From a virus: DNA of 64,000 bases. Positions 5,360-46,529 of this stretch are shown here, piece after piece (position 1 is the first letter of the stretch; each line of letters starts with the position of its first letter). Where the stretch lies: the IMG/VR virus record IMGVR_UViG_3300042922_000923, positions 32,001 through 96,000 of that record; one strand, 5' to 3'. Position numbers and translations under genes: made by a program. The notes under the pieces were generated by a model. It saw nothing but the letters and a program-made list of their open reading frames with translations, was not told the DNA's origin and did not search any database.

Positions 5360-5370
5360 AATAAAATCCT

Positions 5371-5429
5371 CCTTATATATGTATAAAGAGGATTTAACAG
5401 AAATTATTTAAAATACTTCCACTTAGAAA
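5371..5429 (-). promoter_or_regulatory. Phage-specific promoter-like motif upstream of DNA polymerase
   Basis: TTCTAAGTGG AAGTATTTTAA ATAATT ... TTTATACATATATAAGGAGG. Confidence 0.65.
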
Positions 5430-5505
5430 AATAAAGACCAACTAAAAGTCAGCCTTTATTTTAACTATAATTTTATTCAGTTAATTATATTAAGAAGTTT
5501 TTTCA

Positions 5506-13245: not shown

Positions 13246-13299
13246 ATAGGTCCCCCTTAAGTTTATTAGTAATATCAAAATTTCTAATAAAATAGTCTT

Positions 13300-13356
13300 A
13301 CTAAATATAAAAAAGATAGATTTGGAATAATTATTTCCAAACCTATCCACTTAGAG
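13300..13356 (-). promoter_or_regulatory. Phage-specific promoter-like motif with embedded hairpin
   Basis: CTCTAAGTGGATAGGTTTGGAAATAATTATTCCAAATCTATCTTTTTTATATTT. Confidence 0.65.
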
Positions 13357-14181
13357 TTATGCATATGAGAGTAAAAGTTCCTGTTTAGATGGAGTTTCTG
13401 GTATCTCAAATTTATTTTCAATATTTCTAAGCATACTTTCTATAGCTTGCTTAGTCTTTTTATTTGAAAGTATTTTATTAACCTTTTCTAGCTGCTTTTT
13501 AGAATCAGAATCTGCAACTTCTTTACAGTATTCTTCAAGGGTTTCTATTAACCAATCACAGGTACTAATATAATACACGCTTAAGGATAACCAATTGTTA
13601 TATAATACAAAAATTTTCTTTTCGAGAGCTGTGCTATCCAGTGTAGAATATTTAATACCATTCTTTATAATTTTACAGTCATTTATTAATGCTTCTGATA
13701 TCTCTTCCCTCACTGTTTTTATTTTATTAGCAGTAAAAGCTGTACCATCTGCTTCATGCTCCTGAATTTTTCCTTTAATGTATCTATAGTAATGTGCTAT
13801 AGCTCTTTGAGAACATAGCTGTTGAGGATATATTCTACCATCTGAATTTTCCCAGTATTCGGCACGATCAAACTGAGAGTCTATATAGATAAAGGTATCC
13901 CAGTTACGCTTTATGCACAAGTTGCATACATTAGCAAAAAATTTCCAATTTTTATGATGTGTAGGATCTTTCCTACTAATTGCATTAAATCCATCTAGAT
14001 TTAAAAGTGTTCTAACTTTATATCCATAATAAGCTGCTACAGCTATAATATCTTCTTCCGTAGCATTTCCTAGTATCTTTAATGATTCTAATTTTTCCTT
14101 GCATTTTTCAAGCATACGTGCCTTAGGATCATAAATGGAAATTCTAAGTATACTTTTTGATTTAATAGCTTTTCTCTTCAT
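13357..14181 (-). CDS. Hypothetical protein between the two helicases (possible replication accessory/regulator)
   Basis: 274 aa ORF; position as in SPO1-like replication modules. Confidence 0.6.
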   Translation of the reverse strand: MKRKAIKSKSILRISIYDPKARMLEKCKEKLESLKILGNATEEDIIAVAAYYGYKVRTLLNLDGFNAISRKDPTHHKNWKFFANVCNLCIKRNWDTFIYIDSQFDRAEYWENSDGRIYPQQLCSQRAIAHYYRYIKGKIQEHEADGTAFTANKIKTVREEISEALINDCKIIKNGIKYSTLDSTALEKKIFVLYNNWLSLSVYYISTCDWLIETLEEYCKEVADSDSKKQLEKVNKILSNKKTKQAIESMLRNIENKFEIPETPSKQELLLSYA

Positions 14182-14395: not shown

Positions 14396-15872
14396 TTGAT
14401 ATTTCCTCCCAAGTTTCCTTTTTCATAGGATCTATCATTTTTATTTCAAATTTTTCCTCTTTTAAAACTGTATATCTATCTAAATTATGCTTCTTTAAGT
14501 TAGCTCCAGTAAAATCTAAGAAATCATAGAATCTAAGGCAACTTCCATCCTTTTTCTTTCTTAGTCCTCTTCCTAAGCCTTGAAGTAGTTTCCTGGGAGA
14601 CTTTTGACCTCTGGCATAGATAATTGCATTTATATTGTCAGTATCAATACCTTCATCTAGAACAGATGTTGCTATTAATACATTTATATTACCTGCTTTT
14701 AAATCTTCTAAAATTTGTTTTCTTACTTTAGTAGTTCTGCCTCCATGTGTAAATTCTATGGTACCTAGTGCACAACTATTTTCTAAGAGGTCCTTTAGGA
14801 GTTCTCCATGTTCTGTATGTTCTACAAGTATTAAAATATTACTATTGAGCAGCTTACGTTCTTTTTCAGCAATAATACGAATGAATTTATTTCTTAATGG
14901 ATTATTTGTTATGCACATGCTATATTCTTCAGCATAGTCAAGTATGTCATTAGGTTCTGGAGATTTTACTTCTATAAAATAGCACTTAGGTCTAGCTGAA
15001 GCATTTATGCTTATGAGGTATTCATTAGAAATATTTACGGTTGGTGTTCCAGTATATCCCATGACCATATGCTTTTCTATCTCTTTATCAGGAAGGGTAC
15101 CTGTTAAACCAATTCGTATTGGTGTAAGGTCTAATTGATTTAAAACTTTTTTATACGCTACTGAGGATGCATGTTGAACTTCATCAATAAAGATTGCTCT
15201 AATAGACCTAGCAAAATCTTTAAACTTTTTTTCTTTTATATGCTTTGATAGAGTAGGAATTAAACATACTGTTATTGTTCCTTCGCTCCATTTTCCAGCA
15301 CCTATTGTTCCAACGAATATACCTGGAAACGCTGTATTAAAATTTTGTATAGTTTGAAACAATAGTTCTTTAGTTGGAACAATAAATAGGATTCTTTCGT
15401 CTGTTTGTATCTTTTTTAGAATTTCATTCATAATAGCTTGTGCTGTAACAGTTTTACCTGCATTTGTAGCCATCTTTAAGATACCTCTATAAAAGTTCAT
15501 AGACCCTATTTTGTTATTTATAATAGAATTTACTGCATCCACCTGATAGTCTCTTAGACTTTTTTCACCAATAGAATAGCTGCTGTCTATTGCTTCTAAT
15601 TCTATTGCTGCTGGCCTCTTATCAATAATGCTGTAAGGTTCTTCATACTGTTCAAGAACCTCTATAAGTATAGGTAGTAAGCCAGTCATAAGCTCATTTC
15701 TTTCAAAAAAGTTTTTCTCTCCATTCCAATGACCAGCTCTGAAGGTAGGTGAAAAATAAGCTCCAGGAACTTTAAAAGTAAATCGTTGAGTAACTATTCT
15801 CCATAAAGCTGTTCCTATATCCTTAACTTCACATTTATCATTTCTTACTAAAATTTCTAGCAATTTACTCAC
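14382..15872 (-). CDS. SF2 helicase (UvsW-like)
   Basis: LRDYQ, ATNAGKT, DEVQH, TGT, QGLGRGLR. Confidence 0.92.
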   Translation of the reverse strand: MSKLLEILVRNDKCEVKDIGTALWRIVTQRFTFKVPGAYFSPTFRAGHWNGEKNFFERNELMTGLLPILIEVLEQYEEPYSIIDKRPAAIELEAIDSSYSIGEKSLRDYQVDAVNSIINNKIGSMNFYRGILKMATNAGKTVTAQAIMNEILKKIQTDERILFIVPTKELLFQTIQNFNTAFPGIFVGTIGAGKWSEGTITVCLIPTLSKHIKEKKFKDFARSIRAIFIDEVQHASSVAYKKVLNQLDLTPIRIGLTGTLPDKEIEKHMVMGYTGTPTVNISNEYLISINASARPKCYFIEVKSPEPNDILDYAEEYSMCITNNPLRNKFIRIIAEKERKLLNSNILILVEHTEHGELLKDLLENSCALGTIEFTHGGRTTKVRKQILEDLKAGNINVLIATSVLDEGIDTDNINAIIYARGQKSPRKLLQGLGRGLRKKKDGSCLRFYDFLDFTGANLKKHNLDRYTVLKEEKFEIKMIDPMKKETWEEISNAED

Positions 15873-15930
15873 TCCTTTATCTATATAAAAGAAAAGAGAA
15901 CAGAAATTATTTTCTGCTCTCCAGTTAGAA
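15873..15930 (-). promoter_or_regulatory. Phage-specific promoter-like motif with embedded hairpin
   Basis: TTCTAACTGGAGAGCAGAAAATAATTTCTGTTCTCTTTTCTTTTATATAG. Confidence 0.65.
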
Positions 15931-15969
15931 GACTATTAATTATCATAGTATGTTTCAAAATTATTTGGT

Positions 15970-17163
15970 TTATTTATCAACAGTGTTACTAAAGGATATA
16001 TCAAGTTCTTTTAAAATTGTTAAATCATTGTATTTACCTTTAAAACAAATTCTAGGATTTATAGCTATAGCTCGTTTTCCTTTAAATCTAATTATTTTTA
16101 GTACAGGTTCTCCATAAACTGTCATAGCCAGAAACTTTCTTTTGAATCTTGTTATATTAGATTCATGTATTAACATAGATATTTCCATTAGTGTATAAGG
16201 TTCTATTCTTGATATATCTGGTTCAGAAGGGTTTTTACAACAGATATTTGTCTTAAAATGTAAATAAGGAATCATTCTATATAATAGTGATAGCTGTGCA
16301 TGTTCCCTTGGTGTAGAGTTATCATATAGCTCTTTTAATGCAGCACTAAAAATTCTAATTCCATTGTTATCATATTTAGTACAACTACCTTTTGAGGAAT
16401 ACTTTCTATTGATTCTAAATGTTTCATTAGCAGTAAAAGTAATTAATTTATAGTTTATAAGATTCTTTCTAAGTTTATAAGCATCTGTATTACTTAATTT
16501 AATAATATTTTTAAACTCTTTAGTTGTCACAAGTTTTTCTCTTTTAGTTGCTATATAATTTTTATAAGTCATATGGCAACATAAATAAAGAAACCTAGCT
16601 AGTAATGCAGAAGGAGCATCAGATAACAATTTTTCTTCGTAATTAAAGAAAAAGTAAGTGCCATAAACACAAGCTATTGAATCACTATATCTTTTAATGC
16701 TTTTGTAAGGTGCAGTAGTATTATTTAATAAATCTTGAACCAGAGTATCTTTCAAGTCTAGATCATTATTTTTTCTAAATAGAGAAATAATCCTTTTAAA
16801 CACCTTTCTATCTTCATCTAAGTCTTTTCCAATGGTCATATTTCCTAATAAATATTCTGTTAGTGTATCCTCAATGTTATACCCAGCCTCTAACGTGTTA
16901 TACTTTCTTATAAAAATGTCCTCACAAACAACTAGAACGTATTTATCTATAGGACTCTTAATGTCATCTCCTAAGACTTTTATAGCTTCAAATTTAAAAT
17001 TTTCTCCTCCATATTGCTTCCATTCACTCTGTAACATTTTATTTTTGTGCGTATAGTTATTTAACTGTCTTTTATGATCTGACCATCTTTTTTCTATGTC
17101 TAAAGTTTCACCAATATACATTTTATTATTAATTGTATTAGTTATTTTATAAATTCCCCTCAT
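15970..17163 (-). CDS. GIY-YIG endonuclease fused to RepL-like winged-helix domain
   Basis: GIYKITN..NKMYIG..RW..H; C-terminal half paralogous to 17185..18096, ending INPRICFKG. Confidence 0.75.
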   Translation of the reverse strand: MRGIYKITNTINNKMYIGETLDIEKRWSDHKRQLNNYTHKNKMLQSEWKQYGGENFKFEAIKVLGDDIKSPIDKYVLVVCEDIFIRKYNTLEAGYNIEDTLTEYLLGNMTIGKDLDEDRKVFKRIISLFRKNNDLDLKDTLVQDLLNNTTAPYKSIKRYSDSIACVYGTYFFFNYEEKLLSDAPSALLARFLYLCCHMTYKNYIATKREKLVTTKEFKNIIKLSNTDAYKLRKNLINYKLITFTANETFRINRKYSSKGSCTKYDNNGIRIFSAALKELYDNSTPREHAQLSLLYRMIPYLHFKTNICCKNPSEPDISRIEPYTLMEISMLIHESNITRFKRKFLAMTVYGEPVLKIIRFKGKRAIAINPRICFKGKYNDLTILKELDISFSNTVDK

Positions 17164-17184
17164 ATATTATCATCTCCACGTAGG

Positions 17185-18096
17185 CTATAGTAATTCTTCA
17201 TTATAACTACAAATTTGATTTTTAGCTGCATCAAATAGCAAACCTAATCCTTCCATTCTCTCAATATCTCCAAAGCTCCCTTTAAAATAGACTCTAGGAT
17301 TCACAACTACAATTTGATTTCCTTGAATTTCAGATATACATATAACAGGTTCACCTGCAACTGTCATGTCTAGCAACCTTCTTCTAAATCTAGTTATATT
17401 ACTTTGATGAAGTATTTTTGCAAGTTCCTTCAGTGTGTATGTTTCTAATTTGAGAGGATCACGCTCTGTAGGATTAGCACAACAGATATTCATACTAAAA
17501 TTTATATAGGGTAACAGTAAGTACAATAGAGCTAGTTGAACATGTTCTCTAGGTAAAGAGTTCATGTACAAGTCCTTTAAAGCATCTTCAAACACTCTTA
17601 CTTTTTCTTTACTTTTTGAAATTCCTTTTTTGCAATAGGATCTATTTACTCTAAGTTTTTCATCATCACCTAGTATTAGTAACCCATATTTAAACAAAGT
17701 AACTTTAGTTTTATAAAATTCTGAGTATTTCAAATTCAAAATTTCTCTTAAGTTATCTAGATTCATAGGTGTCTTATCACTATTTATTAATCTATTTTCA
17801 TAATCCATAAAGCAGCAAGTATACAGGAATCTAACTAGCATTTGAGGTGAAATTATGGATAAGGGTTTTGAATAAAAATTAAAATAAAAATTACCATAAG
17901 TATTAATCATATCTGAATTATTTTTCATTTTGCATTTTTCTTTCAATTTAAGTTCTGCGAGTTTATCTGATTTTCTATCATTATAGTTTATAACATTTGC
18001 TATAGTATTTAAAACTGCTGGAGAATTAACGTCCAATTCATTTCCGAATAGCTCTTTGTAAGTCTCAAACTCTTTAGAATATTTAGTATTTTTCAT
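17185..18096 (-). CDS. RepL-like replication/DNA-binding protein
   Basis: RFLY..C.MDYEN, VNPRVYFKG; start refined to MKNTK by AAGGAGG RBS. Confidence 0.55.
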   Translation of the reverse strand: MKNTKYSKEFETYKELFGNELDVNSPAVLNTIANVINYNDRKSDKLAELKLKEKCKMKNNSDMINTYGNFYFNFYSKPLSIISPQMLVRFLYTCCFMDYENRLINSDKTPMNLDNLREILNLKYSEFYKTKVTLFKYGLLILGDDEKLRVNRSYCKKGISKSKEKVRVFEDALKDLYMNSLPREHVQLALLYLLLPYINFSMNICCANPTERDPLKLETYTLKELAKILHQSNITRFRRRLLDMTVAGEPVICISEIQGNQIVVVNPRVYFKGSFGDIERMEGLGLLFDAAKNQICSYNEELL

Positions 18097-18131
18097 AGTA
18101 GCCTCCTTATTAATTATCATGTAGTAATATT

Positions 18132-22775: not shown

Positions 22776-23699
22776 TTATATTAAACTCCAGATAACTCCA
22801 GTATTTTTAAGTTGTTCTAAGTAATCGTAGAATCCAATATCAAGCTTATTTCTTGAAATTGTAATTATAGCTACTTCAATTAAACTTATAGCTTGAGCTT
22901 CTGTTAGGTCTATTCCAGTTACAACAGACATTCTATCTATTTCTTCTTTAGTTGGAGTATACAATATATCACAGATATCTTCATTTAACATTTCAGAACA
23001 TTTTACATTTAATGTTAATGCAACAACTTTCTTTAGATCCTTGTGTTCCTCAATCTCAATATTTGTTAAATCTGTATATTCAGTGATTTCTTTAATAGAC
23101 TTTTGAAGTAAACTTCTCTTAAATTCATAGTAGTCAGGGTATGATGTAGGAGAAAATCCTAGTCTTTCCTTAAGTTCCTCTAATTTAAATTTTCTTCCTC
23201 CTTGTGCTACGCTATCTTTTAGTAGCTCATATAGCCTGAAAGAAGGTGTTTTCTTAAATTTTAGTACAGCATTATATCTGTATTTTCCATAAAGTTCCTT
23301 TAGTGCTAGTAAGTCTACTATAATATCTGGATTAAACATTATATCTATACATCTTTCCTTAGTGTTGTATTTAAATGCACCTATTCTAGTCTCTTTATAT
23401 AATCCATTATCTTGAAGTTTCAGTATCTCCTTAGAATCTAATGTACCTGCTGCATCCTTTAAAAGAATATAGAGGTTATTGCTGTTAACATTATATTGAT
23501 TTTTAAAATCAAGTACAGAGACTTTTACTACATCAAAATTGTGTTCTTTGTATGCATTCCTAATTTCAGACGTTTTTATATTTAATTTCATGTAGATAGG
23601 TCTGAGTCTACTACATGCTAAATAAATAATTCTTTGCTCAGTAAGTGATAAGCTATAATTGCTGTCTATAAGAGTATTTATTCTATTCATATATCTCAC
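22776..23699 (-). CDS. Plasmid replication initiator, Rep_3/RepB family
   Basis: NTLIDSNYSLSLTEQRII, SFRLYELLK, LEELKERLG...YYEFKR..L..SIKEI..YTDL. Confidence 0.8.
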   Translation of the reverse strand: MRYMNRINTLIDSNYSLSLTEQRIIYLACSRLRPIYMKLNIKTSEIRNAYKEHNFDVVKVSVLDFKNQYNVNSNNLYILLKDAAGTLDSKEILKLQDNGLYKETRIGAFKYNTKERCIDIMFNPDIIVDLLALKELYGKYRYNAVLKFKKTPSFRLYELLKDSVAQGGRKFKLEELKERLGFSPTSYPDYYEFKRSLLQKSIKEITEYTDLTNIEIEEHKDLKKVVALTLNVKCSEMLNEDICDILYTPTKEEIDRMSVVTGIDLTEAQAISLIEVAIITISRNKLDIGFYDYLEQLKNTGVIWSLI

Positions 23700-23760: not shown

Positions 23761-23794
23761 TACCAAAATTGCACGTAACTAATTCAAATTATAT

Positions 23795-23851
23795 TTCTAT
23801 GTGGAATAATAAATAATAATTCTAATTTTTTTAACTTATGCAATTATAGGG
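23795..23851 (+). promoter_or_regulatory. Phage-specific promoter-like motif at start of plus-strand block
   Basis: TTCTATGTGG-11-ATAATT...TTATAGG. Confidence 0.55.
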
Positions 23852-23864
23852 AGGTGATTTTATT

Positions 23865-24290
23865 ATGAGAAAAATTACCAACGTAATAATCGCTGGTACA
23901 AGAACATTTACAGACTACAAATTAGTATGCACTGTTATGAATGTTATTAGACAGAAGTATGGAGATATACAAATAATTGTAGGTGGTTGCAAGGGTGCAG
24001 ATAAATGTGGAGAACTTTATGCTATAGAAAATAAGATTCCTTACAAAGTTTATAATGCAGAATGGAAGAAATACGGAAAAAGAGCTGGACCACTTAGGAA
24101 TGAAAAAATGAGTAAAGTAGGAAATGTTTTAGTCTTATTCTGGGATTACGAATCAAGTGGATCAGAAGACATGTTGCATTTAGCTGTTAGAGAAGAATTG
24201 GATCTATATGTAATGCTTTATAGAACTAATGAATTTTATGCAGGAAAGAATGTTATAGACAAAGTTTATAATAATATACTTCCATTTTAG
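23865..24290 (+). CDS. SLOG/YspA-like (DUF2493) protein
   Basis: VIIAGTR.F.DY, GGCKGAD, W.KYGKRAGPLRN..M, FWD..S.GS. Confidence 0.85.
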   Translation: MRKITNVIIAGTRTFTDYKLVCTVMNVIRQKYGDIQIIVGGCKGADKCGELYAIENKIPYKVYNAEWKKYGKRAGPLRNEKMSKVGNVLVLFWDYESSGSEDMLHLAVREELDLYVMLYRTNEFYAGKNVIDKVYNNILPF

Positions 24291-24306: not shown

Positions 24307-25029
24307 GTGTATAATAAAAATATTTTTAGTGACAACGAATGCTCTGTATCTGTGAATGGAGAGTATATAGGTAAGGCTACATTAAAAAGTTCTAAGATAA
24401 ATAATGAGTCAGCTTCAGATGATGATAAAGAAAATAAAATACAAAAAAGATGTGTTGGCTGTGCTTATCCAGCAAGTATTAAATTAACAGATATGCTAAT
24501 AGATCAGTTATCTGTGCCTAGTTATACTGAGAAACTAGCAGAAGTTAAGAATACCCTTAGGGTACTTACTGGTAAAGACTTTGAGATCTATTACACTAAC
24601 TTAGGTAAAATATTGCAGGAAATCACTAATTATGCTCATGAGCATAATCAAATTCCTAAAAATGAAATACTAGTAGCAGGTTTATGTGATAGTCCTGATG
24701 ATTCTAATAATATAATATTTTTTGGAAGAATGAACATGGATATCTTTAATGGTGTTGATATTTCAGGTAGTGATCCTCAATTTAGAGTTATTTCTAGAAT
24801 GCATAGTGCTTTAGGAGCTACTGAGTATTCTCCATTTAAAGGATCTTTTTCTATAGAATTTAAAAATACTGTAGACACCATAGAAGATTTGATAAAGGAG
24901 ACAATAATAGGTTCAGACTGTATTTCGTCATTTAAGGGAAACAAGCTAGACAACTCTGAGAAACGTGGTAAAAAAGGAAAAAAGATTAGGAACTGGGAAA
25001 AGAAGTGCTTTTGGCAGAAAGGGAGATAA
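24307..25029 (+). CDS. Hypothetical protein
   Basis: 240 aa ORF. Confidence 0.65.
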   Translation: MYNKNIFSDNECSVSVNGEYIGKATLKSSKINNESASDDDKENKIQKRCVGCAYPASIKLTDMLIDQLSVPSYTEKLAEVKNTLRVLTGKDFEIYYTNLGKILQEITNYAHEHNQIPKNEILVAGLCDSPDDSNNIIFFGRMNMDIFNGVDISGSDPQFRVISRMHSALGATEYSPFKGSFSIEFKNTVDTIEDLIKETIIGSDCISSFKGNKLDNSEKRGKKGKKIRNWEKKCFWQKGR

Positions 25030-25031
25030 CA

Positions 25032-26162
25032 ATGGAAATAGGATTTTTAGGAGATATACATTTTGCAGAATATAAAGACTTTAGTACAGATGTACTTGTG
25101 GAATGGGATTCTGTTAACTTAAAATATATAAAATCAGATATTGGTAAAAAAATGAACTCAAGGCTTCTCGATATTGCTAACGCAATGATAGAAGCTAGAG
25201 ATTACTTTATTGCTAATGAAATTAAATTAGTTATTATAACTGGTGATATTTCTCATAATAGAGGTGCGGTACCTACTATTGTTCAGAATGTAGAGTACAA
25301 CATACTTGAGAGCTATAAGCATTCTGGAATTGAAGTTATAATTAATCCTGGTAATCATGACCAGGTATCAAATGAGGATTTTCCAGAAAATAGCTTAACT
25401 CCATTTAGAAATATTGCAACAATTATTGAGAAGCCTACAATACTGCTTAGAAATAACATTAATATTCTATTTGTTCCATTTTCAGCTAATAAAAGTATAG
25501 TAATGGATGCTATCAACGATTTTAATCCAAAATCTACTTTTGATTCAAATATTATAGTAGCTCATTTAGGTGTTTCTGGAGGTTTTACCGGAAAAAATTC
25601 ATATGTACTAACAGATCAATATGAACCTGAGGAACTAAGATACTTAGATGAAGACATTGATTTGATAGCTTTAGGCCATTATCATAAGCCTCAGTTAGTT
25701 GAGGGAACTTTGAATAAAGTAATATATACTGGTTCCCCTGTTCCAGTTAGCTTCAATGAAGAGGGAGAAGAACATGGATTATGGATATTTGATACAAGTA
25801 CTAAAGCAATGTATATGCATCCTCTTAAGTCTCCAAAGTTTATTACTCTAAATAAGGAAAACTATTCTGACTTTTCTACTGAGGATTTGAAAGGAAACTT
25901 TGTTAGGATTGTAGGTAACTTAGAAGAAGTTGCAGACATTAATGCAGCAGTTACTATAGATCCTGAAGATAAGAATATAGAAAATAATATGATTAGGATA
26001 GAGACTCAAAAGGAATATGAAGCTGAACATAGAAGTGATATAAATCCTGAAATGAGTTATGCAGAATCTGTATTTAAATATGCTGAGGAAAATGATTTTA
26101 CTGAGGAACAAGTAGCAACTGGAATTGAAATATTAAATTCTGTCTTAGAAAACTATAATTAA
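25032..26162 (+). CDS. sbcD: SbcD/Mre11-like metallophosphoesterase nuclease
   Basis: GDIH, TGD, GNHD, AHLG, LGHYH, YTGSP. Confidence 0.92.
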   Translation: MEIGFLGDIHFAEYKDFSTDVLVEWDSVNLKYIKSDIGKKMNSRLLDIANAMIEARDYFIANEIKLVIITGDISHNRGAVPTIVQNVEYNILESYKHSGIEVIINPGNHDQVSNEDFPENSLTPFRNIATIIEKPTILLRNNINILFVPFSANKSIVMDAINDFNPKSTFDSNIIVAHLGVSGGFTGKNSYVLTDQYEPEELRYLDEDIDLIALGHYHKPQLVEGTLNKVIYTGSPVPVSFNEEGEEHGLWIFDTSTKAMYMHPLKSPKFITLNKENYSDFSTEDLKGNFVRIVGNLEEVADINAAVTIDPEDKNIENNMIRIETQKEYEAEHRSDINPEMSYAESVFKYAEENDFTEEQVATGIEILNSVLENYN

Positions 26163-26169
26163 AATAAGT

Positions 26170-26218
26170 AAAACTGTGGATAAGTCCAATGTTAGGACCA
26201 GTTATCCACAGTTTTTTT
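26170..26218. promoter_or_regulatory. Inverted pair of perfect DnaA boxes forming a terminator-like hairpin
   Basis: TGTGGATAA 26175-26183 and TTATCCACA 26202-26210 followed by T run. Confidence 0.75.
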
Positions 26219-26249
26219 AATAAAATTTAGAAAAACATTAAAATTATTC

Positions 26250-26278
26250 TTGAAAATTATTTAGTTTGAATGTAATAT
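26250..26278 (+). promoter_or_regulatory. Sigma-A promoter for rep leader
   Basis: TTGAAA-17 bp-TAATAT. Confidence 0.6.
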
Positions 26279-26346
26279 ATAATTAAAAGTTGTACAAGAA
26301 TACTTAATAAAATAATATGTTTATTTTAAAATATAAAAAAGTCTAT

Positions 26347-26435
26347 AAAAAAAAAGTAATAAGAATTTGTTAGTTTTGGCCGACTGCTCATTCTTATTAC
26401 TTCCAAGGAGATTTGCCAATCTCTTTATTAACTAT
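26347..26435 (-). ncRNA. Antisense countertranscript RNA (copy-control type, ~90 nt)
   Basis: Minus-strand TTTACA(26465-70)-17-TATAAT(26442-47); hairpins 26408-26423 and 26354-26402 followed by U9. Confidence 0.7.
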
Positions 26436-26483
26436 ACCCTTATTATAGAGTATAAAAGTATGTTTGTAAAGAGTTTTAATAAT

Positions 26484-26530
26484 AAATCCTCCTTATTCCT
26501 AAATTTTTTTATGGATTTAAAGGAGGATTT
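26484..26530 (+). promoter_or_regulatory. RBS-sequestering hairpin of rep gene
   Basis: AAATCCTCCTT 26484-26494 complementary to AAGGAGGATTT 26520-26530; ATG at 26534. Confidence 0.75.
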
Positions 26531-26533
26531 TTC

Positions 26534-27382
26534 ATGCCAATTTATAAGCCACAATTTGAAGACAAGTTAAACGAGTATCAATTTAATAAATTAAATTTAA
26601 TTGATAACCTAGATCTTAGAGGTAGCTTAATATCTATTCTGTCATATATGATGATAATTAATGATCGTAAAAATGACCAGTATAATGAACATCAACTAGA
26701 CTTCCTTAAAAAAAATTCTAATGAATTAAAAATATCCTTTAGCGAATTTAGAAAGCTATACGTTAAAAATCATAAAAAACTAAGCCTGACTACAGTAAAG
26801 GAAAGAATCTATAAACTATCTGAACTAGGTTTACTAAAGATATCTAAAGTTAATAACATTAATAGCTACACATTTATTACTGAAAAGTCTGAAATTCCGA
26901 CTACTAAAAATTGCACTGCATCCACTGAAAATACTAGATTAGAGCTAAATGAAGATTTCTGTTCATTTGTGGATAATATTAATAAAGACTTAGACTCTAA
27001 TAATCCTGAAGGATTTGATTACGAAAATTATATTGATTCTGAGCAAAAGGTTAGTGACTGGGATCTAGTATGCAAAAAGACACAGGATATCTTTAAGATG
27101 CTTAAGGTTAAAAATGCGTGGATAAAAGAAACAGTCATAGCAAAATTATCTAAATACTACTCAAACGTGACATTTAAGCACTTAGATAAATATATATGTA
27201 CCATGATAACCAATGCCAGACAGCAATATTATAATAACTATAACAAACTTGTTAAGAATGCAGTTGCAGCTCCCCCACTTAATTTTGTTAATTTTGAGCC
27301 TAGAAATTATGATTACGATGCACTTGAAGAGCGCTTATTAGGCTGGAGTTCGGATAAAGACCTTGTGTTGCCTATAAAATAA
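26534..27382 (+). CDS. Putative plasmid-type replication initiator (wHTH)
   Basis: HTH LSLTTVKERIYKLSELGLL; C-terminal NFVNFEPRNYDYDALEERLLGW tail as in clostridial Rep proteins; internal DnaA box 26968-26976; control elements upstream. Confidence 0.7.
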   Translation: MPIYKPQFEDKLNEYQFNKLNLIDNLDLRGSLISILSYMMIINDRKNDQYNEHQLDFLKKNSNELKISFSEFRKLYVKNHKKLSLTTVKERIYKLSELGLLKISKVNNINSYTFITEKSEIPTTKNCTASTENTRLELNEDFCSFVDNINKDLDSNNPEGFDYENYIDSEQKVSDWDLVCKKTQDIFKMLKVKNAWIKETVIAKLSKYYSNVTFKHLDKYICTMITNARQQYYNNYNKLVKNAVAAPPLNFVNFEPRNYDYDALEERLLGWSSDKDLVLPIK

Positions 27383-27462
27383 AATACTTAATAAAAGTTA
27401 TGTAAACTAAACTATTGTTATGGACAGATTGTGGATGCTTCTAATTTGTTCTATAAATTAGT

Positions 27463-27520
27463 CTCTATGTGGAGATTCTTGAATTAATTATCGTGCAACA
27501 CTCTTTTTTAATATTAAAGG
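27463..27520 (+). promoter_or_regulatory. Phage-specific promoter-like motif upstream of sbcC
   Basis: CTCTATGTGG-11-TTAATT...TTTTTTAATATTAAAGG. Confidence 0.55.
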
Positions 27521-27530
27521 AGGCTTACGT

Positions 27531-29501
27531 ATGAAATTTAAGAACTTAGTTGCTGAAAACTTTTTGTCAATTTTAAATTTAGATATAAACCTTGATAACC
27601 AGGGACTTACCCTTATTCAAGGCGATAATCAAGATGATAATAACTTTGAATCCAACGGTGCAGGTAAAACTACTTTTATGGATTCAATTTCGTGGGTGCT
27701 TTATGGAAAAACCTTAAAAGGTTTAAAGGCTGATGAAGTACTGCACAATAAAGTTAAAAAAAATTGTATGGTATCATTGGAGATAGAAGACGATAATGGA
27801 GATAATTACAAGGTTGTTAGAGGCAGAAAACATAAAGAATATAAAAATAGTGTGCTTATTTTTAAAAATGAAACTAATATTACTGGAAAAAGTGATAAGG
27901 ATACTAATGACTTTATAGAAAGTTTGCTTCAAATGTCCTATGATGTTTTTGTTGCCACAATACTGTACAGCAGCAATTCATTCAAGTTTACATCTGCTAC
28001 AGATTCAGAAATGAAAAAATCATTAGATAACATGCTCAATATGGAATTTTGGAATCTATGCTTAGATGAAACTAAAAGGCGCATAGATGAAGTGAAGAAA
28101 GAAATAAAGGATATTGAAGTTTCCATAGACAAAGGTATTTTGAATCAGAATAACTTGATGGAGCAAAAGAAGTTATTAACTGGTAAGTCTATAGAGGCTA
28201 AGACTGCTGGTATCAAAAAGAAGCAGGAGCTTACAGACAGATTAGAAACTGCAAAAAAGGAGCTTAAAGGCCTAAAAGATAGCTCTGAAGACGAAACTGT
28301 TATTAGAAAAATGATTGATGTAGCTACTAAAAAAATATCTGAAATTACTAAAAAGCTTGATGAATTTGATGATGTATTTGATGATATAAATAAAAATAAG
28401 GCTATGATTTCAGAAATAGAAGGACTAATAAAAATAAATACTAATGCTATAAATGACTTAACAACTAAGGCTGATGCTATATTAAAAAAATTAGATGATA
28501 AAAAAGCTTTGATAGGCACAGAGTGCCCTGTTTGTGGTTCAGAAATTACTGAGAAGTCACTAGAGGGTGCAACGAAAGAAATGCTTATGGAGCTTCAAAG
28601 TATAATACAGGAGCGAAAAACAAAAAAGGCCTCAAAAGAAAAGCATGAAAAGCAAGCAGAATTTTTCAAAGAAAAGGTCAAAGAACTTCAAACTAAATAT
28701 GAGCAAAGAAAGCCTTTAACTGATGAAAAATCTAGCTATGAACAAGTATTAGCAAATAATAAGGCCAAATTAACTCAAAATTCTAAATTAAAAGAACTCT
28801 ATGAAAAATCCAAGAAGCAGTATACTTCTTTAATAGCTACTCTAGAAAAGGATATTGAAAATATTGAGAGTCCTAAAGAAGATACTTATGCTCCTGAGAT
28901 TGATAATATATCTGTTAAGATTGAGAATTGTCTTAAGGAGCTTCAGGAATCAAGAATACTTCTGGAGGAAAAAAATAAAAAGCTCTCAAATTTAGAAGTT
29001 TGGTTAGATCCTTATTCAAATAAAGGAATAAAAAGTAGGCTTTTAGATAGTGTAACACCTTTCTTAAATAAGCAATCTAATTACTATTTAGGAAAGTTGA
29101 CTTCAGGATCTATAGAAGTTGAGTTTAAAACACAGGATACAAATAAATCAGGAAATACCCATGATAAGCTTACTTTAAATATTACTAATAAAAATGGTGG
29201 AGATAAATATATATCTAATTCAGATGGAGAAAGAAGAAGAATTGATATATCTGTTAACTTAGCTCTCCAGGACCTTATTAGTAATAGAAGTACAAAGAGA
29301 ATAAACGTTGCATTCTATGACGAATGCTTTGATTCCTTAGATGGTGTAGGTTCTGAAAGAGTTATAGAAATTCTTAATGAAAATAAAAATAATAAGTCTT
29401 CTATTTTTGTAACTACGCATAAGGATGACTTAAAAGCATTTTTTGATAAATCTATTACTATGGTAAAAAAGAATGGATTTACAACCTTAAAAGAAAATTA
29501 A
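27531..29501 (+). CDS. sbcC: SbcC/Rad50-like ABC ATPase
   Basis: Walker A SNGAGKT, coiled coil with CPVC zinc hook, signature variant SDGE, Walker B FYDECFDSLD, TTH. Confidence 0.93.
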   Translation: MKFKNLVAENFLSILNLDINLDNQGLTLIQGDNQDDNNFESNGAGKTTFMDSISWVLYGKTLKGLKADEVLHNKVKKNCMVSLEIEDDNGDNYKVVRGRKHKEYKNSVLIFKNETNITGKSDKDTNDFIESLLQMSYDVFVATILYSSNSFKFTSATDSEMKKSLDNMLNMEFWNLCLDETKRRIDEVKKEIKDIEVSIDKGILNQNNLMEQKKLLTGKSIEAKTAGIKKKQELTDRLETAKKELKGLKDSSEDETVIRKMIDVATKKISEITKKLDEFDDVFDDINKNKAMISEIEGLIKINTNAINDLTTKADAILKKLDDKKALIGTECPVCGSEITEKSLEGATKEMLMELQSIIQERKTKKASKEKHEKQAEFFKEKVKELQTKYEQRKPLTDEKSSYEQVLANNKAKLTQNSKLKELYEKSKKQYTSLIATLEKDIENIESPKEDTYAPEIDNISVKIENCLKELQESRILLEEKNKKLSNLEVWLDPYSNKGIKSRLLDSVTPFLNKQSNYYLGKLTSGSIEVEFKTQDTNKSGNTHDKLTLNITNKNGGDKYISNSDGERRRIDISVNLALQDLISNRSTKRINVAFYDECFDSLDGVGSERVIEILNENKNNKSSIFVTTHKDDLKAFFDKSITMVKKNGFTTLKEN

Positions 29502-31653: not shown

Positions 31654-31671
31654 TATTAATAAAATAAGATT

Positions 31672-31730
31672 CTCTAAGTGGACTAGTCTAAAATAATTTA
31701 GGCTAGTTTTTCTTTTATATTTATATAGGG
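31672..31730 (+). promoter_or_regulatory. Phage-specific promoter-like motif with embedded hairpin, upstream of primase
   Basis: CTCTAAGTGGACTAGTCTAAAATAATTTAGGCTAGTTTTTCTTTTATATTTATATAGGG. Confidence 0.65.
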
Positions 31731-31741
31731 ACTAAAAAGGA

Positions 31742-32731
31742 GTGAGAATTAATATGTTAATAGATATTCTTGCACAAGGTTTAGGAGAACCTGTATATAC
31801 AAATAGAGAATCTGAATACAGATTTGATTGTCCTCATTGTGGCGAAACTAAGCATAGGCTTTATGTATCTACTTCTAAGGGACTTTATAACTGTTATAAC
31901 TGTGGTGAGTTTAGTGGTCCTATAGTTGGACTTATAGCATATATACAAGGAATTAGTTATAAAGAAGCCTTTGAGTTATATAAGGAATATGCTAATGTTT
32001 ATACATTATCCGGTGACATTAGAGAAGCTATTTTAGAAAAATTAAAAGTATTTGATATAGATAAATACATGCTTAAATCACCTATTCCACTACCTGAAAC
32101 TTTTACGCTACTAGATAAAAGTGATTCTAGAGAGGCTAAGAGAATACGCAAAGTGCTTCATTCAAGGCTTGTTACAGATTCACAAATAACCAGACATAAA
32201 TTTGGATATTGTTTCGATGGGGAATATTCAGAAAGAGCTGTACTTCCTATCTATGAACAAAAAGAGCTTCAATTTTGGGTTGCTAGAGCAACTACGAAAA
32301 CTGCTTATAAGAAAGAAATGAGTCCAACCAATGAAGAATATCAAATCTCTAAGTCAGAAGTAATATTTAATTTAGATTATGCAGCAAAAAACTTTGGAGC
32401 TATAGTAATTTGTGAAGGAATATATGATGCAGTTTCCTATGGAGACATAGGTGTTGCTACTTTAGGAAAAATTTTATCAGAAGCTCAAGTTGAAAAAATA
32501 CTTAAGTATAAAAACAAATTAGTAAACGGTGTTTACATGTCTTATGATGAAGATGCAATAAAATACAATCTGAGAGCAGCTGAGGAACTAAGCAAATATT
32601 TAGATGTGCACATGATAAACGTTAAAGATGATCCTAATGAAATGGGTAGACTAGGATGCTTAGAGGCTTTTAAAAAGGCAGAAGCATTTGACTTTAGCTA
32701 TAAATTAAAGATGAAACTAAAAGGGTACTAG
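31742..32731 (+). CDS. DNA primase (zinc finger + TOPRIM)
   Basis: CPHC..CYNC, CEGIYDA, YDEDA, DPNE. Confidence 0.92.
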   Translation: MRINMLIDILAQGLGEPVYTNRESEYRFDCPHCGETKHRLYVSTSKGLYNCYNCGEFSGPIVGLIAYIQGISYKEAFELYKEYANVYTLSGDIREAILEKLKVFDIDKYMLKSPIPLPETFTLLDKSDSREAKRIRKVLHSRLVTDSQITRHKFGYCFDGEYSERAVLPIYEQKELQFWVARATTKTAYKKEMSPTNEEYQISKSEVIFNLDYAAKNFGAIVICEGIYDAVSYGDIGVATLGKILSEAQVEKILKYKNKLVNGVYMSYDEDAIKYNLRAAEELSKYLDVHMINVKDDPNEMGRLGCLEAFKKAEAFDFSYKLKMKLKGY

Positions 32732-46321: not shown

Positions 46322-46420
46322 AAGTATTCCTCCTTCTATTGTTCTTTTTAACTACTAATAATATAAAACCCTTGGCACTATAGAGTTTAAGAAATACCTA
46401 GATTAATAGAAAAATTTGGC

Positions 46421-46478
46421 TTCTATATGGAAAAAATTTAATATTTTTAAATTAATTCACTTTTTTATTTATATAAGG
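46421..46478 (+). promoter_or_regulatory. Phage-specific promoter-like motif driving inverted island
   Basis: TTCTATATGG...TTTTTTATTTATATAAGG. Confidence 0.5.
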
Positions 46479-46529
46479 ATGCATTCATTTTTTAGCATTC
46501 TAATTAAAATAAGAGAAAGAAGGACTTTT

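Follow-up and report, generated by a model that had tools for sequence, protein, structure and literature searches.

A probable replication module of the pCW3/phiSM101 family, with predicted antisense control, between sbcD and sbcC of a Herelleviridae-like myophage

Myophages of the SPO1, Twort, and K type are regarded as obligately lytic and are favored, partly for that reason, in therapy and biocontrol. What, then, is a plasmid-type replication gene doing in the genome of a phage of this kind? The locus that raises the question lies in a window of 64,000 nucleotides (nt), bases 32001-96000 of a 131,110-bp virus record from a soil metagenome (IMGVR_UViG_3300042922_000923). There, a cassette consisting of a leader and an initiator gene, rep, occupies the gap between genes for an SbcD-like nuclease and an SbcC-like ATPase. 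Positions are those of the window unless the contig is named. Our reading, at a rough probability of 0.7 that covers module identity and antisense control jointly, is that the cassette is a self-contained theta-plasmid-type replication module of the pCW3/phiSM101 Rep family under antisense control.

The identity of the module was established by comparison of its protein product.

26534..27382, plus strand: rep, encoding a 282-amino-acid initiator of the pCW3/phiSM101 family (tblastn, profile search, alignment, AlphaFold model)

The initial annotation, made from the letters of the window, had proposed a plasmid-type replicon, and database searches agreed. A tblastn search with Rep returned 128 plasmid records, 127 of them from Clostridium, with 29-36% identity over about 76% of the protein. 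Most were C. perfringens plasmids of the pCW3/pCPF5603 type, in which the gene is often annotated as encoding a plasmid replication protein. Three phage records matched, including phiSM101, whose CPR_C0040 carries the same annotation and adjoins a partition gene; E values against the plasmids and phiSM101 ranged from 9e-21 to 1e-17. The nearest relatives are metagenomic (46-56% identity; 46-47% for loci L017-L021), and identity was 35-36% to pCW3-type proteins over residues 55-268, 33% to phiSM101, and 28% to C. botulinum p4_BKT015925. A profile search with Rep collected 103 cluster representatives at E ≤ 1e-3, the invariant residues of the family were present in a full-length alignment, and in PHROGs the protein fell into phrog_18939 (unknown function; 3.8e-39). 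phiSM101 is described as an episomal prophage (PMC3442830) and p4_BKT015925 as a phage-plasmid hybrid (PMC8473940). By these sequence relationships, Rep is a plasmid-type initiator of the pCW3/phiSM101 family.

Rep could be set apart from better-known initiator families. The open reading frame (ORF) matched no Pfam family at E ≤ 0.01 and no NCBIfam. The AlphaFold model (mean predicted local distance difference test score, 84.6) comprises a winged-helix N-terminal domain (residues 10-118), a disordered linker (123-156), and a helical C-terminal domain (about 160-270). The winged helix-turn-helix claimed in the initial annotation was thus present in the model, where the N-terminal domain is a generic winged helix: a fold search returned ORC2 (Z 9.0, the top match), Fur/PerR, MecI, 4pta (Z 8.0), and primosomal DnaB (Z 7.0), all non-discriminating. 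The match to 4pta_D, a RepA N-terminal domain (Z 8.0, root-mean-square deviation 5.5, 98 residues), was tied with many winged-helix proteins, and a profile search of PDB sequences found no family for Rep and did not find 4pta at E ≤ 1. The C-terminal domain alone gave no Foldseek match (best E 2.2), and its best VIA score (Z 7.4, to ECF sigma region 2 helical bundles) was non-discriminating.

A language-model atlas placed Rep nearest to RepA_N clusters with a score of 0.95, yet with 146-152 shared features versus 170 typical of members. None of 59 Rep family members matched PF06970 (RepA_N) at E ≤ 0.01, so that the atlas score counts as a lead, not as membership. Rep_trans matched neither the window ORF nor any of the 59 family members. 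Rep as a Rep_3 iteron initiator was also rejected, PF01051 and PF21205 having no match in the ORF.

A C-terminal tail, NF[E/Q]xRxYD..LE..LLGW (window 27275-27355, Rep residues 248-274), recurs in otherwise unrelated HTH_36/DnaD_N and Phage_rep_org_N proteins of small Clostridium phages (L004-L016, L019:2929-3717, and L020:5299-6042). The tail may serve these proteins as a shared peptide for docking to a host replication factor. Thirteen viral loci that had been candidates for Rep relatives share only this tail; their proteins are HTH_36/DnaD_N proteins, and they were left out of the family analysis.

What controls rep? The leader contains the following predicted elements.

26250..26278, plus strand: predicted sense (rep) promoter, TTGAAA-17-TAATAT with TG before the -10 hexamer; 9/12 consensus positions
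26347..26435, minus strand: predicted countertranscript of 89 nt, folding into two stem-loops and ending in U9; ends predicted from promoter and terminator
26354..26402, minus strand: countertranscript terminator hairpin; its arms are perfect over 13 bp, and its 23-nt loop has TTTGGCCG on the plus strand; equivalent in 15/15 loci
26405..26414, plus strand: predicted pre-emptor inside the countertranscript target, pairing with the 5' arm of the anti-Shine-Dalgarno stem in the nascent leader
26442..26470, minus strand: predicted antisense promoter, TTTACA-17-TATAAT; 11/12 consensus positions
26484..26532, plus strand: anti-Shine-Dalgarno (anti-SD)/attenuator hairpin, 11-bp perfect stem 26484-94/26520-30, U5 at 26528-32, just before the ATG

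These elements correspond to the sense promoter, the opposing promoter with an RNA of about 90 nt, two hairpins, and a U9 end, and the 11-bp stem burying AAGGAGG that had been noticed initially, and all were recovered. The predicted countertranscript is fully complementary to the rep leader from 99 to 187 nt before the ATG, and its fold (-22.2 kcal/mol, z -3.3) was matched in stability by none of 200 shuffles.

We compared the leaders of 15 family loci: the window; three metagenomic loci (L017, L018, and L020); phiSM101-like phages and plasmids (L001, L002, L027, L031, and L032); pCW3-type plasmids (L026 and L029); other C. perfringens plasmids (L030, L033, and L034); and C. botulinum (L035). 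L021, nearly the same as L020, was added for the count of DnaA boxes, making 16. The 15 loci are not independent and represent roughly eight to nine lineages, and the family layout is our own description, for which there is no published criterion.

A minus-strand promoter matching at least 10/12 consensus positions lies between the leader hairpins and the anti-SD stem or ribosome-binding site in all 15 loci. Per locus, 12-48 of 500 dinucleotide shuffles (2.4-9.6%) reached this score, and the best promoter on the plus strand of the same interval scored at most 9 in 14 of the 15. Every locus also has a promoter-like site on the plus strand at -199 to -318, and the block holding the window's sense promoter aligns with L017, L018, and L020. 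A hairpin of 12-16 bp with a loop of 14-23 nt and a U-rich tail on the minus strand was present throughout (15/15), built from 14 different stems; compensatory change was seen in three of 12 pairs among ten terminator hairpins of the pCW3/phiSM101 clade. In 13 loci the anti-SD stem was clear, with U4-U7 and then the start codon after it; in L033 and L034 the script chose other hairpins.

The strand on which these hairpins act can be read from imperfect pairs. Stems were defined strand-blind, and interior non-Watson-Crick positions were counted over the 15 loci. The terminator hairpins held eight G.U wobbles on the minus strand versus none on the plus strand, and the anti-SD stems held 27 on the plus strand versus three on the minus strand. 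Some wobbles are inherited within clades, those of the terminator hairpin representing about five separate lineages. Because the wobbles are strand-specific, unlike those of DNA-level palindromes, both hairpins look like RNA elements. The layout comes from comparison with relatives; from it we infer the RNA and the switch described below.

Loops of the UUGGCG U-turn type are typical of antisense/target kissing loops. In the family, the motif TTTGGYCG is found on the plus strand in the window, L017, L018, L020, and the phiSM101 clade; L026, L029, and L034 have TTGGCG on the minus strand, and L033 has it on the plus strand.

The proposed switch involves the pre-emptor. When the nascent leader was folded with the 3' arm of the anti-SD stem not yet included, 10 of the 11 nt of 26484-94 paired with 26405-14; the anti-SD stem took over once the leader was complete or the target was masked. 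Only seven of 300 shuffles gave complementarity as good as the window's pre-emptor, and seven of the 15 loci, the window included, exceeded shuffles at this level (≤7/300 as good), with two more borderline. We propose that, when no countertranscript is bound, 26405-14 would pair with 26484-94 as soon as the latter is transcribed, the attenuator/anti-SD stem would not form, and Rep would be made. A countertranscript on the leader would sequester 26405-14 and allow the anti-SD stem to form, upon which transcription would stop at the U run, the ribosome-binding site would be hidden, or both. The stem may act by terminating transcription, by blocking translation, or in both ways, and sequence alone does not tell which. 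The amount of countertranscript would follow gene dosage and would in this way set copy number.

Several results weigh against this control scheme. The region 25800-27700 contains 14 promoter-like matches versus 11.8 ± 3.8 in shuffles, which is no enrichment, so the weight of the promoters comes from the comparison with relatives. In these AT-rich regions, 8.4% of shuffles also give a stem of 12 bp or more; with each single case weak against shuffles, it is the recurrence of the hairpin at one position that counts. The window's own stems are entirely Watson-Crick and carry no strand information, and the terminator-hairpin region folds slightly better on the plus strand in five of the 15 loci, among them the window. 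The anti-SD stem is the minimum-energy fold of the complete leader even when no countertranscript is present, so the switch has to be kinetic. Pre-emptor complementarity was not significant in six of the 15 loci, including both pCW3-type plasmids. A covariance model built from ten pCW3/phiSM101-clade hairpins and searched at E ≤ 10 missed the hairpins of the window, L017, L018, L020, L021, and L035, its six matches all lying elsewhere; homology of the RNA elements is thus positional and architectural and is not detectable in sequence. MAFFT and RNAalifold gave no consensus structure on the 15 hairpins or on those of the window, L017, L018, and L020, and for this reason each locus was analyzed separately by scripts. 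Finally, the stretch was present only in contigs of soil DNA runs, with no RNA run among them. On five anti-SD stems, MAFFT and RNAalifold gave a weak consensus only, and Rfam returned chance-level hairpin matches (E 2.7-6.9), all far below gathering scores.

How does this control compare with known systems? The initial annotation likened the layout to that of pT181 and pIP501. A countertranscript complementary to the leader, a pre-emptor, and a stem bearing the ribosome-binding site before the start codon are all predicted in the window, so the likeness extends to the elements of the mechanism but not to the protein. RepC of pT181 is a Rep_trans rolling-circle nickase, and RepR of pIP501 is of the PriCT_1 type and is accompanied by the CopR repressor; none of their Rep domains match the window ORF, which belongs to neither family. 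As to a cop gene, the interval from the sbcD terminator hairpin to rep contains no ORF, and HTH_3 is nowhere above cut-off in the genome. The staphylococcal plasmid pSK41, a RepA_N plasmid that uses a ParM, has its origin within rep, in the linker codons. Short direct repeats also occur in the linker-coding DNA of several family rep genes (L018:1040-1076, L029:1725-1748, and window 26853-26864 and 26973-26984). By analogy with pSK41 they could mark an internal origin; they are weak and two-copy only, a point of difference from pSK41. At the protein level, the modeled Rep has the three-part build of the pSK41 initiator: a winged-helix N-terminal domain, a linker that is dispensable or disordered, and a C-terminal domain.

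In geometry, the predicted countertranscript comes closest to RNAI of pSK41, which is described as about 83 nt long with two stem-loops, lying about 100 nt upstream and hiding the ribosome-binding site (PMC5703833). The same source gives the pT181 pre-emptor as competing with the 5' arm of the terminator-like stem-loop IV, which holds the ribosome-binding site, and in its treatment of this subject RNA control of the pSK41 kind has not been seen in RepA_N plasmids outside staphylococci (PMC5703833). The predicted control of the module resembles that by the pT181 and pSK41 countertranscripts in mechanism only, and the Rep family is a different one.

Among known systems related through Rep is the pCW3 family, which shares a homologous Rep and inverted repeats upstream of rep, five of which are labeled oriV in the figure 1 legend of PMC9426499. 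A minus-strand promoter, a U-tailed hairpin, and an anti-SD stem occupy the same relative places there as in the window. The differences are that pCW3-type plasmids have a divergent parMRC directly upstream and regulators downstream, that L026 and L029 have no DnaA box within 500 nt upstream, that the TTGGCG loop motif of L026, L029, and L034 is on the minus strand whereas the window's motif is on the plus strand, and that the host element is a 47-75 kb conjugative plasmid rather than a 131-kb myophage. The small Clostridium phage-plasmids (phiSM101, p4_BKT015925, and L017-L021), described as phage genomes carrying plasmid genes (PMC3442830 and PMC8473940), share the Rep family and leader layout, the plus-strand TTTGGYCG loop (L017, L018, L020, and the phiSM101 clade), and a perfect upstream DnaA box (L017, L018, L020, L021, and L035). 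They are, however, temperate, siphovirus-type genomes of 34-55 kb in which ParM adjoins rep and an HTH_3 repressor stands beside it, whereas the window phage is SPO1-like, has its own replisome and no recognized repressor, and carries its ParM gene about 46 kb off.

The module also contains DnaA boxes and an AT-rich stretch.

26170..26215, no strand assigned: 14-nt perfect inverted repeat (26170-83/26202-15), then T7, directly after the sbcD stop codon
26211..26346, no strand assigned: candidate unwinding region, very rich in AT (GC 17% in 26200-26399) and containing the sense promoter
26968..26976, minus strand: perfect DnaA box inside rep (linker codons), in only 1/16 family loci

Two perfect DnaA boxes in inverted orientation had been noted initially and are exact, TGTGGATAA at 26175-83 (minus strand) and TTATCCACA at 26202-10 (plus strand); in addition, they form the arms of the 14-nt inverted repeat. 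With its stable fold (-22.7 kcal/mol, z -7.1) and T7 right after the sbcD stop, the repeat reads as the sbcD terminator, and it likely doubles as a predicted DnaA-binding site. The window holds four perfect boxes and the 131-kb genome five, versus 1.66 expected. A perfect upstream box at 277-359 nt occurs in six of the 16 loci, namely the window, its nearest clade (L017, L018, L020, and L021), and C. botulinum p4_BKT015925 (L035), where 4-22 of 2000 shuffles (0.2-1.1% per locus) would produce one; the other ten loci, all C. perfringens, have none. The conservation that supports the upstream boxes is lacking for the box within rep, which had been listed with them: found in one of 16 loci, it is probably a chance occurrence and was rejected as a functional site.

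Around the DnaA box, the window and metagenomic relative L017 share the block ATAAGTAAA[A/C]CTGTGGATAA[G/C]TC, identical at 21 of 23 bases and beginning right after the sbcD stop codon. This shared block marks the left boundary of the captured module.

Composition also marks the gene as foreign. The coding-strand GC skew of rep is the lowest of 86 ORFs (0.016 versus 0.185 ± 0.085), its GC content at third codon positions ranks 84th of 86, and rep is compositionally foreign. The module, spanning 26163 to about 27460, was probably acquired horizontally. A 32-nt stretch, 27384-27415, is also found in other contigs of the same soil runs, with two differences.

The surroundings of the module are those of a phage replication region.

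25005..26162, plus strand: sbcD-like nuclease gene, left flank, intact (Pfam Metallophos 2.7e-11; phrog_100 SbcD-like 1.8e-59)
27463..27520, plus strand: copy of the phage's recurrent promoter-like motif (TCTAWGTGGA ... AAATAATT ... TATA) before sbcC, aligned with seven other copies
27531..29501, plus strand: sbcC-like ATPase gene, right flank, intact (Pfam AAA_23 4e-17; phrog_77 SbcC-like 1.3e-121)

The cassette is located within a block of replication and recombination genes (DnaB, helicases, sbcCD, and primase), and Twort and SPO1 share its gene order (sbcD, slot, sbcC, small gene, primase). In Twort the slot is filled by a single small ORF, in SPO1 by five. Because its occupants differ in this way, the sbcD-sbcC gap is a known variable slot in Herelleviridae; the insertion proposed initially stands insofar as both flanks are intact, but the gap was already variable, and the unusual part is its occupant. 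That sbcC has its own phage promoter motif after the insert was confirmed. The motif, of about 58 bp, precedes replication genes, with copies on the minus strand (545-615, 5365-5435, 13295-13362, and 15868-15935) and on the plus strand (23787-23870, 27455-27535, 31664-31745, and 46413-46490); it is likely to be a promoter specific to the phage. The TGTGGA at its core is similar to one half of a DnaA box. A gene for a YspA/SLOG-family protein (23865-24290, plus strand; PF10686, 3.9e-16) heads the operon that runs into sbcD.

With a GC content of 31%, the genome as a whole encodes replication proteins (a DNA polymerase, a primase, and DnaB-like and SF2 helicases) and also a tail sheath, baseplate proteins, a tape-measure-like protein, and tail lysins. 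The tail sheath has 37-40% identity to those of SPO1-like phages, and most of the 765 records that match it are myophages of Staphylococcus, Bacillus, Enterococcus, and Listeria. Judged by tail sheath and gene order, the phage can fairly be called a Herelleviridae-like myophage. Contigs of two soil runs, from which this DNA may derive, carry the stretch contiguously, without joints, a result that is silent on variants lacking the cassette. The viral contig search found no contig encoding a close relative of the sbcC product, and search A1 found no relative in viral_contigs or genome_contigs.

What use would such a phage have for the module? Virion genes, the plasmid-type rep, and a ParM-like partition gene are all on the one 131,110-bp contig. 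The ParM-like gene encodes 300 amino acids at contig positions 11558-12460, outside the window (L022 11347-12584; PF17989 1.5e-20; phrog_691 partition protein 1.6e-51). A 74-amino-acid ORF overlapping its end is a ParR candidate with no family match, and short CATGTT-type repeats upstream are a parC candidate. In the phage collection, the ParM-like protein matched ten records, which are small temperate Clostridium-type phages and short metagenome fragments. A second initiator gene, of the Rep_3 family, lies at a strand switch (22776-23699, minus strand; PF01051 1.1e-20, PF21205 4.8e-13). No iterons were found near it, and its protein matched only four records in the collection, Acinetobacter sequences of 4-8 kb; no Herelleviridae-type phage was among these ten and four tblastn records. 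The RepL-like label given to two adjacent paralogous ORFs at 15970-18120 (minus strand) was not reproduced: Pfam finds only GIY-YIG in one and nothing in the other, and the ORF at 15970-17163 belongs to phrog_9501, of unknown function.

The genome has no integrase or resolvase and no tyrosine or serine recombinase. The gene set fits a non-integrating, plasmid-like state, but without a recognizable lysogeny switch. To judge from these genes, the most likely use of the module would be to replicate the phage genome outside the chromosome at a controlled low copy number, whether as a plasmid prophage or in a carrier state, aided by host DnaA and the ParM-like gene. That the phage does persist in a plasmid state, a lifestyle we infer from gene content, we consider possible at somewhat less than even odds. 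Three observations count against it. First, the ParM-like gene is about 46 kb from rep, unlike the adjacent ParM of most relatives. Where the fetched stretch extends far enough, the upstream neighbor of a relative's rep is almost always a divergent ParM/StbA or actin-like protein (ALP) gene, the exceptions being L027, where the neighbor is a GIY-YIG nuclease gene, and L033, where a small ORF is followed by ParA. In L021, the gene lies between a divergent gene for an actin-like ParM on the upstream side and an HTH_3 gene on the downstream side; in the window, no divergent ParM/ParR operon is present directly upstream of rep, and sbcD is there instead. Second, no CI-type or LexA-type repressor or anti-repressor was recognized in the genome, Peptidase_S24 being absent and HTH_3 below cut-off (the HTH_3 matches under the threshold are two, a sigma factor and a weak, invertase-like match). 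Third, the circularity check suggested initially came out the other way, the record being linear by its ends, with no terminal repeat, and about 90% complete.

A use confined to lytic growth would account for part of this picture. Rep, the DnaA box, and the AT-rich region would then form an origin for the first theta rounds, the countertranscript would limit early initiation, and there would be no plasmid state. The position of the cassette within the replication/recombination block of a phage with a full replisome agrees with such a use, as do the second initiator (Rep_3) at the strand switch and the failure to recognize a repressor, integrase, or anti-repressor. We nevertheless consider it unlikely, since dosage-sensing antisense control is a copy-number device with no obvious use in runaway lytic replication, every relative of known context is a plasmid or a temperate phage-plasmid, rep is compositionally foreign, and a ParM-type gene is present whose phage relatives are all small temperate Clostridium-type phages.

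The cassette might instead be a recently captured plasmid module that takes no part in replicating the phage, either a passenger or a weapon whose countertranscript and Rep, once expressed, could disturb resident plasmids or phage-plasmids of the family through incompatibility or exclusion. Its foreign composition, its place in a slot where Twort and SPO1 have small accessory genes that vary, its own promoters, and its insulation by a hairpin resembling a terminator on the upstream side and by a phage promoter motif on the downstream side are all in keeping with this. An exact 14-nt direct repeat, AATACTTAATAAAA, at 26299-26312 and 27383-27396, lies on either side of the leader plus rep; it was rejected as an insertion scar because, by a rough estimate, AT-rich DNA should contain a repeat of this kind by chance. 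Against this explanation stand the full-length ORF with the invariant residues and the intact state of every regulatory part, and for a weapon no resident target is known; cross-inhibition of known relatives is unlikely because their countertranscript stems differ from the window's. We regard this explanation as improbable.

Equally improbable is a purely DNA-level origin with no regulatory antisense RNA, for although five inverted repeats upstream of pCW3 rep are labeled oriV (PMC9426499, figure 1 legend) and the literature searched mentions no antisense RNA for the pCW3/phiSM101 family, strand-specific wobbles (8 versus 0; 27 versus 3) are not expected of cruciforms or protein-binding palindromes, the hairpins are bounded by a conserved minus-strand promoter and a U-rich tail in 15/15 loci, and the anti-SD stem always contains the Shine-Dalgarno sequence. 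The RNA and DNA readings can both hold, as the same DNA may also bind Rep.

We thus return to a plasmid-type module under antisense control. The Rep family, phage-plasmids, and antisense copy control are each already known separately. A literature search found no antisense RNA or anti-SD switch for the pCW3/phiSM101 family, although an earlier description may have escaped it, and the word "antisense" occurs 0 times in PMC10210947; nor did that search find, by title or abstract, a report of a pCW3-family replicon in an SPO1-type phage. The fullest form of our proposal is that this SPO1-type phage is a phage-plasmid, kept at low copy through a pCW3-family replicon with an undescribed countertranscript/anti-SD switch and through ParM, with no CI-type repressor, and that the same switch is also the copy control of the pCW3 family. 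In this complete form the proposal is tentative, at odds clearly short of even.

If it is true, an SPO1-type virion combined with a copy-controlled replicon, a second initiator, and a ParM would show that a plasmid-prophage or carrier lifestyle is possible for such phages. For the pCW3 family, the comparison suggests how copy number may be controlled, in that the inverted repeats of oriV look like an antisense RNA and an attenuator/anti-SD switch. Plasmids of this family carry most toxin and resistance genes of C. perfringens, and up to five related copies coexist per cell. Because countertranscripts are incompatibility determinants in other plasmid families, the switch proposed for pCW3 would bear on plasmid incompatibility in C. 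perfringens.

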